NCBI GenBank assembly: GCA_963724765.1 | Contig: CAVRVY010000001.1 | Coordinates: 1,248,001-1,312,000 of the forward strand | Direction: 5' to 3' | Length of the DNA stretch: 64,000 nucleotides | From: an uncultured delta proteobacterium | GTDB lineage: Bacteria > Desulfobacterota > Binatia > Binatales > Binataceae | Shown here: positions 10,001 to 16,455 of the stretch, one piece after another | Numbering within the stretch: position 1 is the stretch's first letter | How the letters are laid out: each line of letters opens with the position of its first letter | Made by a program: the position numbers and the translations under genes | Notes under the pieces: generated by a model | Told to the model about the DNA's origin: nothing | Seen by the model: the letters and a program-made list of their open reading frames with translations, nothing else | Databases searched by the model: none

Positions 10001-10477
10001 ATGGCTGAAGACGCCGGAAATCGTGGACTGTTCTGCGACTTGGCAGGGACGCTGGTGAAGATGGATGACACCCGCCAGCTTCCGCTGGGCGCCGACGGAA
10101 AAATCGTGGTCGAGCTGCTGCCCGGCGTGGCCGCCAAGCTCAGCCCGATACGCGATCATCTGATCTTTGTCGTCACCAACCAGGCTGGAATCGCGCGCGG
10201 GCGGCTCAGCCTCGAGCAGGTCGAAGCCGCAATCGGCGAGTTCGATCGCCAGCTCGGCGACATCCTGACCGGATGGCAGATCTGTCCTCACGACGACGCC
10301 GACCGATGCGCGTGCCGCAAGCCCAAGGGCGGGATGCTGACCGAGTTGGGCGCGATCTATGGCGTGGATATGGCGGGCTCGACGATGGTCGGTGACCAGG
10401 AAGTCGACGCCGCGGCGGCGCGCGCGGCGGGCGTCGGCCAATTCGTCTGGGCGCATGATTTCTTCGGCTGGAAATAG
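10001..10477 (+). CDS. HAD-IIIA / GmhB-like phosphatase
   Basis: VTNQAGIARG, CPH..C.CRKP Zn motif, MVGD; motif I reads DLAGT, so the second Asp is missing. Confidence 0.8.
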   Translation: MAEDAGNRGLFCDLAGTLVKMDDTRQLPLGADGKIVVELLPGVAAKLSPIRDHLIFVVTNQAGIARGRLSLEQVEAAIGEFDRQLGDILTGWQICPHDDADRCACRKPKGGMLTELGAIYGVDMAGSTMVGDQEVDAAAARAAGVGQFVWAHDFFGWK

Positions 10478-10640
10478 CCGGCGTCAGCCGCCTCGCGGGA
10501 CTTTTCGGACCGCTTGCACGTCGCTCGGCAAGCTGAACTTGACCGCCGCGATGAAAGCCGACACATTAATCTACGTGAATTGACGGTGCGCAGCCGGGGC
10601 CGGCGATGATTCGATGCAGCCCCTATCCAGATCAGATCCA

Positions 10641-10973
10641 ATGAATCGTGGGCGAACGCATCGTCGAAGCTGGATACGGACGATAGCCGGTATCGGCGCG
10701 GTTATACTGCTCGTCGCGCAGACCGTCGGCATTGCGCATTTCCATCCGCTCCCCTCCCAGCAAAAATACGTCGCGAGTGCTGCCGTCAGCGTTGACGACG
10801 GCCTTTGCGCGCTCTGTCTAGTCCGTTTCCACAGCCCGGCCGCCGTCATCGTGGCGCGTCATCCGACGGCGCTGATGCTGGCGGAACTGACCGCTCATAG
10901 CGCGGCTAGTACGGAGCCGCATTCTTCGTATCGATCGCATTGCTTCGGCCGGGCTCCGCCCGCGTCAGTCTGA
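10641..10973 (+). CDS. DUF2946/CruR-like leader peptide
   Basis: N-terminal TM segment followed by AHFH, central CALC (CxxC), C-terminal GRAPP four codons before the stop; directly upstream of a TonB-dependent receptor. Confidence 0.85.
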   Translation: MNRGRTHRRSWIRTIAGIGAVILLVAQTVGIAHFHPLPSQQKYVASAAVSVDDGLCALCLVRFHSPAAVIVARHPTALMLAELTAHSAASTEPHSSYRSHCFGRAPPASV

Positions 10974-11179
10974 ACTCCCCCCGTTTCGCAAAGTCGAAGA
11001 GTCGATGCGCGTGGGTTTTTTGGCCACGCGCGGCGCCGCGCGGCGAGATTATGGCGGCGCAGTGCTTTGCATTGGAGAAGTACGCGATGCGATCAATTCC
11101 ATCGACGCATGGCTTGGCCGTGCGGATGTCACGTGGCCATGGGGCCGCGCGGGATGAGATTTATACGGAGGAGTTCAAG

Positions 11180-13591
11180 ATGCGGAGCAGAATGCGAAGG
11201 TTAGTAGGAACGGCAATCGCGCTGCTGGCAATAACTTTTATCTTCATGCCGCTGGCCCAAGCAGCGGGCATGGGTGGGCGGCAAAATGTCACCGGTACAG
11301 TCAAAGATGCGCTGGGTCGGCCGCTGGCCGATACGAAATTGGTTTTAGAGGCCGCGGATGGTCATATTCTAGCGCGAACGCGGAGCGGTCAGGACGGCAA
11401 CTTCGAGTTCCGCGACGTGCCCAATGGCACGTATGCGATAGCGGCGAACAAGGATGGTTTCACGACCGGCACCTCGATTGTGGCGGTGAAGTCCCAGGGG
11501 GTCGCTAATCTCGACATCGCTCTTCAGTCTAAAACCGCGCTGAGTCTCCGGGTGGCGACTACCAGGATCAATCCCCAGCCCAACGCCATCTCGGAAACGG
11601 GCAACAGCCAGTATACGCTGACCGAGCATAACATCGAATCCCTTCCGCAAGGTGTTAACACCCCGATTAACGAAGTGCTTCTTCAGATGCCTGGAGTAGT
11701 TCAGGACGACGAAGCACAGGTTCATGTCGACGGTGAGCATGAAGACCTTCAGTGGCGCGTCAACGGGGTCATGATGCCGATGGATAGCTTCACGGGATTC
11801 GGCCAGATCTTCAACAGCTTTTTCGTGAAGAGCGTGAGCTTGGTCGATGGAATCCTACCGGTCACCTACGGCTTCCGGGACGCCGGCGTGCTCGACATGG
11901 TGACTAAAGACGGCTGCTCCAACCCTGGAGGGAACGTGGGATTCTATGGCGGGCAGCGGGAATGGGTGCAACCGAGCTTCGAGTATGGTGGATGTGACGG
12001 ACCGCTAAGCTACTACGTCACCGGGACATGGCTTCACAACAATTTGGCTTTCAGTTCGGCCACGCCTGGCCCGACCCCAATCCACAACATTACGAACCAA
12101 GGTCAGTTTTTCGGTAACTACACCTACGAGATCAGCCCGCTCACCAAGTTGAGCTTGATTACCGGCGTTTCGGTCAACAACAGTCAGTATCCTACTTCGC
12201 CTGGGCTTCCGCCACTCTTCCAGCTCGCCGGAGTAAATCCCGCCAGCTTCCCCTCAACCGATATCGCCGAGAATCTCGACCAGGACTACTACTTCGGAGT
12301 GCTCGCGCTGACCGGCGTAATCGGCCCAGACATCAACTATCAGGTCGCTTACACGGGCGCCTACAGCATGATCCAGTTCAGTCCGGATCCGATCGGCGAC
12401 TTGATCTATGAAGGCGGCGCCTCGAACTCCTTCCGCAGCGAATTCGACAACTCACTCCAGGCGGACCTGTCCCGCCAGTTTGACTGGCCCCACTTCGGCT
12501 CGCACAACATCGGTACCGGCTTCTATCTCGGATATTATGGGGTTGAGGCGGACGACACCACGCTGGCATTTCCGGTAAACTCGCAGGGACAGCAGACCAG
12601 CAATGTTCCAATCAGCATCACTGATAACCTGAACAACATAAACATGCTCTATGGCGTGTATCTACAGGACATCTGGTCAATCAACGAGAAATTGACCCTG
12701 ACCACCGGTGTCCGCTGGGACGGCGTAAGCGGGATCATCAACAACAATATGGTTAGCCCGCGGATCAACTTACTATACAAGATCAATCCGGATACGGCGT
12801 TACACGCCGGGTTTGCGCGCTACTTTCAGACGCCTGATTTTGCGACGATCTCGCAACAGAGCTTCGCGCTCTTCCAGAATACCACGGCCGCGGTCGGACA
12901 GGGCGGACTGCAGCCGTATCCCGAGAAGGACTATTACTGGGATGCGGGCGTGCTGCATCACTTTGGGTCTCATCTGACCGTGACGGAGAACGCCTACTTC
13001 CGTCTCTCGCAGGACCTGATCGATTTAGGGCAATTCGGCTTTGTGCCGATTTTCGAACCCTTCAACTATGAACATGGACGGATTTGGGGGTCAGAATTCA
13101 GCGCTACTTACAATTGGGGAGACCTGAGTTTCCGCGGGAACTTCACCTACTCGGTGGCGCAGGGTAATAACGTTGTGAGCGGCCAGTTCAACTTCACGCC
13201 CGCGGAAGTTGCGTATATCAAAAATCACTACATTTTCCTCGATCATACCCAGCAGTACACCGCCTCTGGAGGAATTACTTACCATTGGAAGAGCTACCTT
13301 TTCAGCATGGATGGCGTCTTTGGAAGTGGCCTGCGTTCTGGCTTCGCCAATACCGACGAACTCGGGGAGAACTTTCAAATTAACCTGGCGGCGGAGAAGG
13401 CCTGGCAGGTGCCGAAGGTCGGTGAAGTCAAGACCCGCGTGGTGCTCATCAACGCCACTGATAATATCAACGAGCTCCGCAATGGCACCGGTATCGGAAT
13501 ATTCGAACCCGGCTATGGCCCACGCCGAGCGGTTTACGGTGGGATCACAGTGCCGCTGCCGCCGATCGGGGGATCGAGGGGAACTCCATGA
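11180..13591 (+). CDS. TonB-dependent outer-membrane receptor with N-terminal carboxypeptidase-regulatory-like domain
   Basis: GGAGGAG RBS before ATG 11180; signal peptide; VTGTVKDALGRPL domain; LLQMPGVVQD plug; YLQDIWSI, SPRINL and other beta-barrel strands. Confidence 0.92.
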   Translation: MRSRMRRLVGTAIALLAITFIFMPLAQAAGMGGRQNVTGTVKDALGRPLADTKLVLEAADGHILARTRSGQDGNFEFRDVPNGTYAIAANKDGFTTGTSIVAVKSQGVANLDIALQSKTALSLRVATTRINPQPNAISETGNSQYTLTEHNIESLPQGVNTPINEVLLQMPGVVQDDEAQVHVDGEHEDLQWRVNGVMMPMDSFTGFGQIFNSFFVKSVSLVDGILPVTYGFRDAGVLDMVTKDGCSNPGGNVGFYGGQREWVQPSFEYGGCDGPLSYYVTGTWLHNNLAFSSATPGPTPIHNITNQGQFFGNYTYEISPLTKLSLITGVSVNNSQYPTSPGLPPLFQLAGVNPASFPSTDIAENLDQDYYFGVLALTGVIGPDINYQVAYTGAYSMIQFSPDPIGDLIYEGGASNSFRSEFDNSLQADLSRQFDWPHFGSHNIGTGFYLGYYGVEADDTTLAFPVNSQGQQTSNVPISITDNLNNINMLYGVYLQDIWSINEKLTLTTGVRWDGVSGIINNNMVSPRINLLYKINPDTALHAGFARYFQTPDFATISQQSFALFQNTTAAVGQGGLQPYPEKDYYWDAGVLHHFGSHLTVTENAYFRLSQDLIDLGQFGFVPIFEPFNYEHGRIWGSEFSATYNWGDLSFRGNFTYSVAQGNNVVSGQFNFTPAEVAYIKNHYIFLDHTQQYTASGGITYHWKSYLFSMDGVFGSGLRSGFANTDELGENFQINLAAEKAWQVPKVGEVKTRVVLINATDNINELRNGTGIGIFEPGYGPRRAVYGGITVPLPPIGGSRGTP

Positions 13592-13741
13592 GCTCTGCTG
13601 ACGCTGTTGATGGGATGAGCCGGACATTTATTTGAGCAGGCCCTGATAATTGCCCAAGATGGTATTTTGGATTCAAGCGGACGGCCGAGCCGGAAATATC
13701 CATTTGCGCCGATCAAAGGGCGCCTTTGCTAGGAGCTGACG

Positions 13742-14434
13742 ATGAGTGAACTCAGGAGTGCCCTGAATGAACTGCAATACGGCGGCGCGATGGTATATCC
13801 GCTGCTGTTTCTCGGAATTGTCGCCGTGCTGATCATTCTCGACCGCGCGGTGGCTTACTACCGATCCCTGCGATTGCCGCGCCCGTTGGCGGAGCTGGTA
13901 GAGACCTATGGCTTTTCCTGGGATGAATTGGATCGGCAACTTGCGGCGCTCGCGCCAGTGAATGTTTACCGGCGCTTCTTCGAAGTGATTAGCGACAATC
14001 GCAACAAGCCTGCATGGTGGGTCGAATCGCGCGCCGGTGACGAAGCGGGCGATATCGAGAAGAGCCTCAGCCGCGGCCTGTGGATACTGGAGACCGTGGT
14101 TACCGCCGCGCCATTGCTGGGCTTGCTCGGCACCATCACCGGCATGATGCAGGCCTTCAAGGTGATCGGAGGATCGGGGCTGGTCGCGCCGACGCAGGTG
14201 ACCTCGGGCGTGGCGCAGGCGCTGATCTCGACGGCGCTAGGCCTTCTGATCGCACTCTTCGCGCTGTTCGGGTTTAACTTTTTCGCACGCACGCAGTCGC
14301 AGACGCTCGATCATCTGGAGCGCCTGGGGTCGAAGCTGATTGACCATATCCGCCTGGATGAGGAAACCGGGGAAAAGGAAGCCGCTGCCAACGTGACCCC
14401 GCTCACGCCGCGAGAGGGAAGGGGCATCCGATGA
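13742..14434 (+). CDS. exbB: MotA/TolQ/ExbB proton channel
   Basis: APLLGLLGTITGM...GVAQALISTALGL. Confidence 0.9.
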   Translation: MSELRSALNELQYGGAMVYPLLFLGIVAVLIILDRAVAYYRSLRLPRPLAELVETYGFSWDELDRQLAALAPVNVYRRFFEVISDNRNKPAWWVESRAGDEAGDIEKSLSRGLWILETVVTAAPLLGLLGTITGMMQAFKVIGGSGLVAPTQVTSGVAQALISTALGLLIALFALFGFNFFARTQSQTLDHLERLGSKLIDHIRLDEETGEKEAAANVTPLTPREGRGIR

Positions 14435-14832
14435 AGCTGCGCAAGGGCCGAGGCTATCGGCGGGGCCGAATCGAGATCATCCCGATGATCGACGTGATGT
14501 TTTTTTTGCTGGTGACCTTCATGCTGGCGTCGCTGTCGATGCAGAGTCTGAACTCGATCACGGTCAATCTTCCGCAGGGCGACGCGCCCAACCTGCAGCA
14601 CAAGGAGCCGGTCGCACTGACTATTACGAAGGATAGTAAGATATTTCTCGACAAGACTCCGACCACGCTTACTACGATGGCATTCACTCTGAAGAGCATG
14701 CTGCAAGGACAGGATCAGGGAGTGGTGGTCAACGCGGACGGCGCCGCGCCCGAAGGTATCGTGGTGGAGGCAATGCTCCAGGCGCGCCGGGCTGGAGTGG
14801 AGCACTTTCTGATCGCGGTCAAGCGCGAATGA
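14431..14832 (+). CDS. exbD: ExbD/TolR biopolymer transport protein
   Basis: IIPMIDVMFFLLVTFM; ATGA coupling to exbB. Confidence 0.92.
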   Translation: MKLRKGRGYRRGRIEIIPMIDVMFFLLVTFMLASLSMQSLNSITVNLPQGDAPNLQHKEPVALTITKDSKIFLDKTPTTLTTMAFTLKSMLQGQDQGVVVNADGAAPEGIVVEAMLQARRAGVEHFLIAVKRE

Positions 14833-15569
14833 ACGGTACGGTTCAAACAGCTTCGCCGTTCCTGGACGAACCCTGGCGGCGGCTGGCCTGGATCGCGCCG
14901 CTATCGATCGCCATCTGGGCCGCGATATTGCTGGCTTTCGCGCTTGTACTCAAGCAAACGGCGCCGCCCTTGCCCGAACTCAAGCCGATCGAGGCACGGA
15001 TCGTCGAGTTGCCGCCTGCGGTCGGTTTGCAAGGCGGCCCGGCCGCCGCCCCGCATCCGGTTGCGCCTGCGCCACCCAAACCCAAGCCTAAGCTCGAAGT
15101 CCGGCGCAAAGTGATTGTGCCGGTGCATCCGCATAAGGAGAGAATCATCCCGGAAGCTCCGCCGTCGGTCGCCGGGACGCGAAAGGAAGCGCCCGCGGAA
15201 TCGAGCGCCAGCACCAGGAGCGCGGCGACCGGCGCGAGTACCGAAAGTGGCAGCGTGCAGGGGAAAGAAGGCAGCGGCAGCGGATCGGGGCTTGGCAGCG
15301 ACAGTCTCGGTGCGCGGGCGATCTATTCGCCCGTGCCGAAGATTCCGGATGAGTTGCGCGAGACCGCATTCCAGGCGGTGGCGGTGGCGCACTTCGAGGT
15401 CTCTTACGACGGAAATGTGAAAGTGACGCTGGCCAAGCCGACCGCGGATCCGCGGCTCAACCAGATTCTGATCAGCACGCTTGAGCAGTGGCGTTTCTTT
15501 CCCGCGATGAAGGGTGGAGTGGCGATCGATTCAGCCTTCGACGTGCGAATTCCGATAAGCGTTCAGTGA
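14829..15569 (+). CDS. tonB: TonB energy transducer
   Basis: N-terminal TM, Pro/Lys-rich linker (PPKPKPK), C-terminal QWRFFPAMKGG..I. Confidence 0.85.
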   Translation: MNGTVQTASPFLDEPWRRLAWIAPLSIAIWAAILLAFALVLKQTAPPLPELKPIEARIVELPPAVGLQGGPAAAPHPVAPAPPKPKPKLEVRRKVIVPVHPHKERIIPEAPPSVAGTRKEAPAESSASTRSAATGASTESGSVQGKEGSGSGSGLGSDSLGARAIYSPVPKIPDELRETAFQAVAVAHFEVSYDGNVKVTLAKPTADPRLNQILISTLEQWRFFPAMKGGVAIDSAFDVRIPISVQ

Positions 15570-15621
15570 TCCCAAGCCTCTTCCACTTCAGGGTCTTGAT
15601 AAAGCTCCCATATGCAGTACG

Positions 15622-16356
15622 GTGACCGACCGTATGCGATTCATGCCGATAGTCATGGCTTCGGTAACGCTAATCTCGACCGGGCTTGGCGGAATGGCCG
15701 CCCTGCGGTTTCGCGATCGTCTTCATCTTCTGCTCGGATTCAGTGCGGGGGCGGTAATGGCGGTGGCCCTCTTCGATATATTGCCGGAGGTCTTTGCGCT
15801 CGACGGTGGCTCCTCGTACATGCCATTCGCCGCGGCAGGATTTCTGGCCTTCTTCGGGTTGGAGCGCTACACGGCGCTCCACCGCTCGCGTGAGCACGTA
15901 CACACCGCGATCGTTCACGAGCAGGAACTTGGCGCGCTGTCCGCGGCCGGATTGACGTTTCACAGCTTCCTCGACGGCGTCGCTATCGGAGTGGGCTTTC
16001 AGACCAGCACGAGAATCGGACTGCTGATCGCGCTCGGAATAATCGTGCATGATCTCAGCGACGGCCTGAACACGGTGACCGTCGTTTTGGCCCATGGTAA
16101 TCCGCGCAGGCGCGCGATGTTCTGGCTCGCGGCGGACATGATCGCGCCGGTTCTGGGCGCCGCTACCGCGCTCCTCATAAATCTGCACGGACTGCTGCCG
16201 TGGATCCTTGCGTTCTTCGCGGGGTCGTTTCTTTACATCGGAGCCTCGGATCTCCTGCCGGAAGCGAAAGAGCACGATTCGCCATGGGTCGGCGTGGCCA
16301 CGGCCATCGGCATGCTGGTAATTTATCTGGCTACCCGAATGCTCCGAAGACTATGA
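15622..16356 (+). CDS. ZIP-family divalent metal transporter
   Basis: HSFLDG and HDLSDG metal-site motifs; His-rich loop HRSREHVHTAIVHE; AGSFLYI...DLLPEA. Confidence 0.9.
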   Translation: MTDRMRFMPIVMASVTLISTGLGGMAALRFRDRLHLLLGFSAGAVMAVALFDILPEVFALDGGSSYMPFAAAGFLAFFGLERYTALHRSREHVHTAIVHEQELGALSAAGLTFHSFLDGVAIGVGFQTSTRIGLLIALGIIVHDLSDGLNTVTVVLAHGNPRRRAMFWLAADMIAPVLGAATALLINLHGLLPWILAFFAGSFLYIGASDLLPEAKEHDSPWVGVATAIGMLVIYLATRMLRRL

Positions 16357-16430
16357 TCTAGTTGTTTGACCAGAGCCTGCTTCGATCTTCACGTGCCGAA
16401 TTCCGATAAACGTTCGGTGAGCGAATTCTC

Positions 16431-16455
16431 CGGCTGGCATTCGCAGCCGCTTTTT
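16431..16455 (+). terminator. putative intrinsic terminator of the TBDR-ZIP operon
   Basis: CGGCTG-7 nt-CAGCCG hairpin followed by CTTTTT. Confidence 0.55.

Follow-up and report, generated by a model that had tools for sequence, protein, structure and literature searches.

A RAPP-bearing leader peptide, probably of the arrest type, ahead of a TonB-dependent receptor and ZIP transporter operon in an uncultured Binataceae bacterium

The leader ORF and its family

The window analysed here is a stretch of 64,000 nucleotides (nt) from an uncultured delta proteobacterium of the Binataceae (contig CAVRVY010000001.1, positions 1,248,001 to 1,312,000 of the forward strand; assembly GCA_963724765.1). 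On its + strand, a small open reading frame (ORF), whose product bears the motif Arg-Ala-Pro-Pro (RAPP) near its C-terminus, is followed by genes for a TonB-dependent receptor, ExbB, ExbD, a TonB-like protein and a ZIP transporter. The small ORF is the subject of this report. It is very probably a regulatory leader of the RAPP arrest type. The features of the leader ORF, in window coordinates, are as follows.

10614..10973, + strand: leader ORF of 119 residues from the conserved ATG at 10614, or of 110 residues if read as 10641-10973; ORF calling and 10-locus alignment
10674..10736, + strand: hydrophobic N-terminal segment, predicted signal peptide or transmembrane segment; AlphaFold2 helix at residues 5-32; consensus AxA directly before the HxH
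10737..10745, + strand: H33-F-H35 (HxH), invariant in the 46-row alignment
10806..10832, + strand: C56-A-L-C59 and H64 (CxxCxxxxH), all three invariant in the 46-row alignment
10950..10961, + strand: R104-A-P-P107 (RAPP; CGG GCT CCG CCC), invariant in the 117-row alignment of RAPP-bearing members; predicted arrest motif
10533..10570, + strand: upstream block CTTGACCG ... GAAAGCCGACAnATTrAT, nearly invariant in the 10-locus alignment; candidate promoter

In a direct reading of the sequence, the leader peptide begins with a basic N-terminus, and the residues from about 12 to 32 are hydrophobic. C56-A-L-C59 is encoded at 10806-10817 and H64 at 10830-10832. An initial annotation, made by a model from the sequence alone, had described an ORF of 110 residues with a hydrophobic segment, HxH and CxxC, all of which are read directly at 10641-10973. 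Since the ATG at 10614 is invariant in all ten loci of the upstream DNA alignment, the product may have 119 residues. The same annotation had placed RAPP at the C-terminus, at 10950-10961. The position is correct, but the motif is not at the very end: A-S-V follows before the stop codon TGA (10971-10973), so that RAPP stands three residues short of the end, as in CruR. In the AlphaFold2 model of the peptide, built on the 117-row alignment, the mean predicted local distance difference test score was 69.6, and all is coil apart from a helix at residues 5-32 and a short one at 57-62. Such a model fits a regulatory nascent peptide and resembles what has been reported for CruR. The candidate promoter block lies 45-80 nt 5' of the conserved ATG. 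A scan of 10300-11300 for the sigma-70 consensus gave no site and did not call this block, and no inverted repeat or palindromic operator was found upstream of the leader in 10470-10660.

A word-indexed search gave 45 homologues of the leader peptide at E<=0.01 among 63 candidates, all of them unnamed. In the 46-row alignment, Q27, A32, H33, H35, C56, A57, C59, H64, S65 and A77 are invariant, and S99, H100, G103, R104, A105, P106 and P107 are conserved in at least 90% of the rows. A family profile made from this alignment was searched against 1.84 billion cluster representatives (E<=0.001) and returned 136 family representatives, nearly all of about 90-140 residues and matched from end to end. 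CxxC is present in 133 of the 136 and HxH in 134, while CxxC and RAPP occur together in 116. Among these 116, the spacing from CxxC to RAPP is 44 residues in 112, 43 in two, and 45 and 42 in one each; the number of residues after RAPP is three in 90 members, four in 15, two in six, one in three and five in two. Several of the 20 representatives lacking RAPP end in RSPP, RGPP, RDPP or QAPP, or are truncated. The alignment of the RAPP-bearing members (117 rows) has a mean column identity of 17%, and yet C56, C59 and RAPP are invariant; the family consensus around the N-terminal segment is LLLxAQLxAxAHxH. The Arg codon of RAPP differs synonymously among loci (CGG, AGG and AGA), which indicates selection on the amino acid. 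The motifs of the leader are no chance pattern, for they vary little or not at all among the 46 close homologues and across the family of 136 members.

The relationship to DUF2946 was then considered. DUF2946 is defined by CXXC and RAPP, and in CruR (Bp2923) of Bordetella pertussis RAPP occupies residues 139-142 of 145, 45 residues after CXXC (Roy et al. 2022, PMC9426467). The profile PF11162 (DUF2946) matched residues 45-107 of the window peptide, at profile positions 53-117 of 117, with 12.4 bits (E 0.29). The initial annotation had proposed such a search, and the motif region did match; the score, however, is below the gathering cut-off of 23.7, and the peptide is therefore filed as a divergent DUF2946 relative and not as a Pfam member. 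The profile matched 20 of the 46 close homologues at E<=1 and 26 of the 117 wider members at E<=0.01, and its cut-off was reached by six of 115 wider-family members. One of these six (P0122, from Candidatus Binataceae bacterium) carries the NCBI name 'DUF2946 family protein'; a homologue search with it returned P0122 itself and one weak match. In a feature search of a protein atlas, an unnamed, mostly Binatota cluster came first and the DUF2946 cluster ranked fifth (score 0.95). The other hallmarks of DUF2946, namely CXXC, a C-terminal RAPP and a spacer of 44 residues (45 in CruR), are present in the window peptide. These facts make the leader peptide a divergent, sub-threshold relative of DUF2946 and thereby of CruR and CutF. 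The premise from which the initial annotation started, that DUF2946 proteins such as CruR use CxxC and RAPP to control a TonB-dependent transporter in response to copper, is correct according to PMC9426467, and the equivalence to CruR that it proposed is supported by the shared architecture and ruler (44 against 45 residues, with RAPP three residues from the end).

No canonical DUF2946 protein above the cut-off was found in the genome of the window, and such proteins were found in two of 201 genomes of the phylum. A survey of the phylum with the family profile matched eight of 301 sampled genomes: three of three in the same family, none of six in other families of the class, and four elsewhere. 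Solved structures searched with the family profile gave no informative match.

The operon and the start site of its receptor gene

The genes downstream of the leader, and a possible end of the operon, are listed here.

11180..13591, + strand: TonB-dependent receptor with N-terminal CarboxypepD_reg domain (PF00593, E 8.1e-23; PF13620, E 3.7e-15)
13742..14434, + strand: exbB (PF01618, E 1.8e-25, 89.6 bits)
14431..14832, + strand: exbD (PF02472, E 2.7e-24, 86.1 bits)
14829..15569, + strand: tonB-like gene (PF03544, 23.4 bits, just below the cut-off of 24.6)
15622..16356, + strand: ZIP (ZupT-like) transporter (PF02535, E 1.4e-18, 67.6 bits against a cut-off of 35.1)
16431..16449, + strand: terminator-like hairpin with T-run, 3' of the ZIP gene (scan: 3 sites in the region, 2.9 expected)

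The series of receptor, exbB, exbD, tonB and ZIP genes named by the initial annotation was thus recovered by Pfam matches, with tonB slightly below its cut-off; the tonB orthologues of three related loci (L056, L058 and L074) are above it. Similarly, the Plug domain (PF07715) gave no match at E<=1 in the receptor of the window, and homologues in L058, L067 and L074 exceed the Plug cut-off. The best, and sole, sequence match of the receptor in the PDB is the colicin I receptor (E 1.2e-4). The genes exbB and exbD overlap by four bases, as do exbD and tonB. The ZupT model scored 59 bits on the ZIP protein, below its equivalog cut-off of 252. Since 3 terminator sites were found in the region against 2.9 expected, the hairpin at 16431-16449 is suggestive and not significant by itself. 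The genome of the window, which is 97% complete, holds this ZIP gene as its only one and gave no match to the ZnuA family; it contains rho, three more ExbD-family genes, and three Fur-family genes away from the locus.

Ten genome loci, from delta proteobacterium metagenome-assembled genomes, encode the leader peptide, which stands first in a conserved gene order. The order, largely kept, is aminotransferase, HAD hydrolase, leader, receptor, ExbB, ExbD, TonB, (ZIP), luciferase-like monooxygenase and oxidoreductase. The leader frame with its RAPP is intact in eight of the ten and frame-shifted in the second half in L013 (8001-8336) and L014 (8001-8303). The receptor genes of L005, L006, L007 and L010 are broken (four of nine loci). 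The frame shifts in the leader ORFs and receptor genes may be assembly errors rather than real decay. The ZIP gene lies inside an 811-bp presence/absence indel (15570-16380) with breakpoints at 15569 and 16381 against L009 and L012; it is absent from L007, L009, L010, L011 and L012. The initial annotation counted the ZIP gene as part of the operon, which is right for the window, but the gene accompanies the leader in only five of the ten related loci.

Comparison of the window with its relatives revealed a discontinuity in the receptor gene. The features concerned are the following, where SD denotes a Shine-Dalgarno sequence.

11095..13739, + strand: replaced receptor cassette, from the DNA identity breakpoints against L006, L008 and L009
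10974..11179, + strand: composite leader region with hairpins at 11007-11031 and 11033-11060, old SD GGAGAAG at 11074-11080, old ATG at 11087, then donor-derived sequence
11165..11188, + strand: new initiation region with SD GGAGGAG at 11167-11173 and ATG at 11180, complementary to the leader tail at 10953-10984

The DNA identity of the window to L006, L008 and L009 is 81-86% from 8400 to exactly 11094, a breakpoint eight bases into the old receptor ORF. Past 11094 only short patches of 66-70% remain, and identity is back at 13740-13747, at the start of exbB. The receptors fall into three classes, namely those of L008, L009 and L011 (86-91% mutual identity), that of L012 and that of the window, with 44-53% identity between classes. 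For ExbB, ExbD and TonB the identity to the proteins of the window is mostly 80-99%, and 66-79% in L012 and L014. The receptor gene of the window is thus a swapped cassette, which is a new observation. The receptor start of eight relatives lies behind GGAGGAG, 111-122 nt past the leader stop, and aligns to the ATG at 11087 of the window. As a consequence of the swap, the old SD (GGAGAAG, with one G to A change) and the in-frame ATG at 11087 are left behind, 113 nt past the leader stop, and the SD and ATG at 11180, brought by the incoming cassette, resemble the start of L012. The leader of about 200 nt in the initial annotation is therefore right in its length, 206 nt from the leader stop to the ATG at 11180, but part of it is a product of the replacement. 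Contigs of three runs from three studies cross both starts unchanged (X3, 10923-11266; X4, 11049-11220; X1, 11033-11202), although one of these runs may be the source of the window itself.

The new start region was found to be complementary to the tail of the leader ORF. Duplex folding gave 22 bp at -32.2 kcal/mol (z -4.7; none of 500 shuffles was as good), in the blocks 10953-10959/11182-11188, 10968-10970/11179-11181, 10971-10978/11170-11177 and 10981-10984/11165-11168. This duplex ranks 238th among the 63,972 28-mers in the window, in the top 0.4%. Pairing of the old start with the leader tail is at chance level (-15.8 kcal/mol, z -0.2). In the RNAalifold consensus of nine sequences, two inner hairpins contain four pairs with compensatory changes, and in an outer helix the SD and AUG are paired to the last codons (GCGUCGGU) and to an ACUCCCC that invariably follows the stop. 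C exceeds G in stretches at 10700-10800 and 10920-11000, which is compatible with a Rho utilization (rut) site as in cruR, but there is no evidence for one.

Gene contexts and the candidate metal

The surroundings of the leader were further analysed in metagenomes. With a 29-row sub-alignment as query, 57 loci were recovered, and downstream + strand ORFs were called in 35 of them. The Pfam scan covered 109 ORFs from 28 loci, after near-duplicates (L028, L029, L038, L040, L042, L049 and L075) and two ORFs of L047 had been dropped. The first downstream gene is a receptor of the CarboxypepD_reg type in 22 of 27 metagenome loci. In the other five, the next gene encodes a protein of 460-511 residues with no Pfam match at 1e-5 (L053:6151-7530, L057:7425-8888, L062:3929-5407, L063:7353-8885 and L079:3605-5137); four of these five proteins have a weak, sub-cut-off match to the phosphate porin (porin O/P) family (E 0.001-0.014). 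ZnuA and/or ABC_tran and/or ABC-3 genes come next in four of the five porin-type loci. ExbB and/or ExbD follow the receptor in 15 metagenome loci, and a ZIP gene is present in L025. No member of a copper family, such as PCuAC, SCO, CopC, YcnI, multicopper oxidase or PepSY, was found among the 109 neighbouring ORFs.

Some loci carry additional genes. An insert between the HAD gene and the leader, present in L005 (5445-6938) and at the corresponding place in L013, encodes two regulators, a metalloregulator of the ArsR/SmtB family and a member of the Fur family. The latter lies on the divergent strand and contains an HHHHFHC stretch. The window has no such insert, and the Fur-family gene of G000 that comes closest (L084) reaches only 31% identity. 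In L008 (13169-15115), a P1B-type ATPase stands between tonB and ZIP; it scored 427.5 with the Cd/Zn model TIGR01512 against a cut-off of 313.5, and barely passed the Cu model (402.7 against 397). A TldD/PmbA-like metallopeptidase of about 525 residues is found at the operon end in seven of 28 loci (L053, L056, L058, L063, L065, L070 and L078, the last with two copies).

The suggestion of the initial annotation that the sensed metal is one other than copper agrees with the ZIP gene, the ZnuA-type ABC genes, the Zn/Cd-type P1B ATPase and the Fur and ArsR genes at related loci, and with the lack of any copper family there. The importer neighbours, the absence of copper families, the lack of ZnuA in the genome and its single ZIP gene together make zinc the likeliest signal. 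By inference, and with somewhat better than even confidence, we take zinc to be the signal of the leader. The set of Cys and His ligands argues against manganese, an argument taken from general coordination chemistry.

Proposed mechanism, its alternatives and known systems

The scheme proposed here builds on the observed anatomy, family conservation, ruler, gene contexts and complementarity, and its steps, namely the arrest, which metal acts, the direction of control and the shares of RNA pairing and Rho, are what we infer from them. In a ribosome arrested on the leader ORF, Pro106 would occupy the P site and Pro107 the A site, as has been shown for CruR. The exit tunnel would hide roughly the last 30-40 residues, and H64, CxxC, HxH and the hydrophobic N-terminus would just have emerged; owing to the fixed spacer of 44 residues, which puts some 47 residues between CxxC and the peptidyl-transferase centre, the candidate ligands would lie outside the tunnel at the moment of arrest. 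A metal, most likely Zn(II), bound at this Cys2/His3 site would change the duration of the arrest by altering the pulling force on the chain, and the state of the arrest would set the expression of the receptor, ExbB, ExbD, TonB and ZIP genes. When the metal is lacking, the ribosome parked on the last codons would cover about 10 of the 22 bp and block Rho, so that the operon is on. When the metal is present, the arrest would be released, the ribosome would terminate, and the helix would re-form and/or Rho would load, so that the operon is off. This logic of CruR is preferred since the target operon is one of uptake.

We favour, with moderate confidence, the view that the small ORF is a CruR/CutF (DUF2946-like) regulatory leader most likely tuned to zinc, with the CruR-like wiring as its preferred form. 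As to the sign of control taken separately, the chances that it is CruR-like are about even. A bolder version is doubtful as a whole. It holds that the leader is a nascent-chain zinc sensor whose Cys2/His3 site folds round Zn(II) outside the exit tunnel at the 44-residue ruler and mechanically frees the RAPP arrest; that it alone, or chiefly, controls the single route of zinc import that can be recognised in this genome, given that no Zur-type operator is visible; and that it is modular, receptor cassettes being swapped under it between lineages, with an incoming start site already complementary to the leader tail.

Several results weigh against the zinc-tuned, CruR-like view. CxxC is a classic Cu(I) motif. 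The receptor has no detectable sequence kinship to any characterised zinc receptor, the DUF2946 score of the leader lies well below the cut-off, and half of the related genome loci lack the ZIP gene. The ZnuA-family protein of L063 scored almost equally with AztC (zinc, 103 bits) and MntC (manganese, 102 bits), both below cut-off, and the ABC system alone therefore cannot separate zinc from manganese. As for the RNA, the outer helix of the nine-sequence consensus contains no compensatory changes, its sequence being almost invariant and thus offering no covariation support. The duplex between leader tail and start is no better than shuffles in eight relatives (z +1.3 to -2.2) except L011, where 0.022 of the shuffles were as good. 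The leader segment with the old start (10950-11101) folds no more stably than shuffles (z -0.04). The initial annotation had proposed folding of the leader for a structure that sequesters the ribosome-binding site; the consensus does pair the tail with the SD and AUG, and the new start region of the window pairs with the tail over 22 bp, but in stability the segment with the old start stays at the level of shuffles. When the bases under an arrested ribosome were blocked in silico, the SD and AUG were not consistently freed, with unpaired probabilities of 0.13-0.40 in the free state against 0.13-0.28 in the stalled state. In view of these folding results, we do not claim the switch as shown by thermodynamics. 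Finally, both studied prototypes, CruR and CutF, sense copper (PMC9426467; bioRxiv 10.1101/2025.02.05.636593).

It is worth noting that there are other possible interpretations. The leader might be the same arrest leader with copper as its signal and a receptor that imports copper. If the peptide were cleaved after the consensus AxA, the H-x-H at the mature end would presumably form an amino-terminal copper and nickel (ATCUN)-like site for Cu or Ni, and the CxxC stands at the same ruler as in CruR, one of two prototypes that respond to copper (PMC9426467; bioRxiv 10.1101/2025.02.05.636593). The neighbouring ORFs, however, contained no copper family among 109 and offered ZIP, ZnuA-type ABC and TldD-like genes instead, and the invariant H33, H35 and H64 are no hallmarks of DUF2946 in the description of its hidden Markov model logo (PMC9426467). 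We consider a copper signal rather unlikely. The idea that the peptide itself has a function once exported or in the membrane, for example as a periplasmic metal chaperone for the receptor, with RAPP incidental or serving as a monitor of Sec export, is very unlikely. While the N-terminal signal or transmembrane segment and the conserved metal ligands would suit such a protein, and RAPP peptides were first found as monitors of Sec and YidC (PMC12992588), the most conserved features at a mean identity of 17% are RAPP and the exact spacing of 44 residues, and the predicted model is mostly coil. In addition, no Sec or YidC gene was found downstream in the Pfam scans of the window and the metagenome loci.

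The wiring might also be the inverse of that preferred here and similar to that of CutF: metal would prolong the arrest upstream of a still-paired anti-SD segment (10971-10984) and turn the operon off, whereas without metal ribosomes would reach the stop, melt the helix and turn the receptor on. The footprint expected for a ribosome arrested at RAPP leaves 12 of the 22 bp on its 3' side, among them the 8-bp UGAACUCC:GGAGUUCA helix, and a terminating ribosome would cover these 12; the footprint limits used in this argument are general knowledge. Copper, moreover, induces rather than relieves the stalling of CutF (bioRxiv 10.1101/2025.02.05.636593; PMC9973294). Against this, the stalled ribosome turns the downstream gene on in both studied systems, and the constrained folding shows no clear difference either way. 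We regard the inverse wiring as unlikely, and return to the CruR-like wiring with zinc in what follows.

Bacterial zinc uptake is, in the textbook account, controlled transcriptionally by Zur. If the proposal is true, reading of zinc on the ribosome would be a second and faster layer of control, and the principle of CruR and CutF would extend beyond copper. The family offers sharp features for tests, that is, an exact ruler of 44 residues, five candidate ligands and a 22-bp pairing of tail to start, and it occurs in unculturable bacteria of soil and peat from several phyla. The cassette exchange illustrates how a switch of this kind can persist when the gene under it is exchanged for another. 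The kind of element is already known from CruR, CutF and the RAPP ORFs before receptor genes; what is new is the cassette swap with its 22-bp pairing.

Among the known systems, CruR shares with the leader a small first operon gene, an N-terminal export signal (predicted here), CxxC, a fixed spacer of some 45 residues and a RAPP that stands three residues from the stop, followed by a long intergenic region and a TonB-dependent transporter gene. CruR arrests translation in vitro while its two Pro codons occupy the P and A sites (PMC12992588), and copper, acting through its CXXC, relieves the arrest and leads to Rho-dependent termination before the transporter gene bfrG (PMC9426467). The leader of the window differs from CruR in its score below the Pfam cut-off, in its spacer of 44 rather than 45 residues and in the extra invariant H-x-H and H64. 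Its operon has its own ExbB-ExbD-TonB and a ZIP gene, whereas that of CruR has a PepSY_TM gene; its neighbours point to zinc and not to copper, and its lineage is Binatota-like rather than proteobacterial. In CutF of Rhodobacter capsulatus, copper-induced stalling melts a stem-loop over the ribosome-binding site of the next gene (bioRxiv 10.1101/2025.02.05.636593; PMC9973294). The leader and CutF have in common a DUF2946-like exported peptide, a Cys motif that precedes a proline-rich end by about 45 residues, and RNA structure over the next SD, but CutF has CxxxC and a PPP repeat where the window has CxxC and RAPP. Since the target of CutF is a detoxifying oxidase, metal there means on; for a target of uptake, as in the window, metal should mean off.

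The general class of the leader is that of the RAPP/RGPP small proteins with a signal sequence before TonB-dependent receptor genes, which are widespread in Gram-negatives (EMBO J 2025, PMC12992588); the HxH/CxxCxxxxH subfamily is not described in the parts of that paper available to us. For some CutF-like clusters, Ozturk et al. 2023 proposed sensing of Ni and Co (PMC9973294). In the texts searched, zinc uptake is not tied to arrest leaders: the terms 'zinc', 'ZIP' and 'ABC transporter' are absent from the main text of PMC9973294, whose File S1 might list zinc-linked neighbours, 'zinc' is absent from the available text of PMC12992588 and PMC9426467, and no literature match joined an arrest peptide with zinc uptake.

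Links of DUF2946-like genes to divalent metals other than copper are known from exporters. DUF2946 genes precede czc-type efflux operons for Zn, Cd and Co, as with CC2720 of Caulobacter (PMC4176598) and CzcI (PMC9973294), the latter having no C-terminal proline motif (PMC9973294). The leader resembles both in standing beside transporters of non-copper divalent metals, but they precede exporters and it precedes importers, and RAPP is invariant in its family. As a transport system, the operon resembles those of ZnuD and of ZnuK, ZnuL and ZnuM of Caulobacter (PMC4176598) in combining a likely TonB-dependent uptake of zinc across the outer membrane with an importer in the inner membrane. Those systems are under a DNA-binding repressor, Zur, whereas control of the operon in the window is predicted to act through the nascent peptide.

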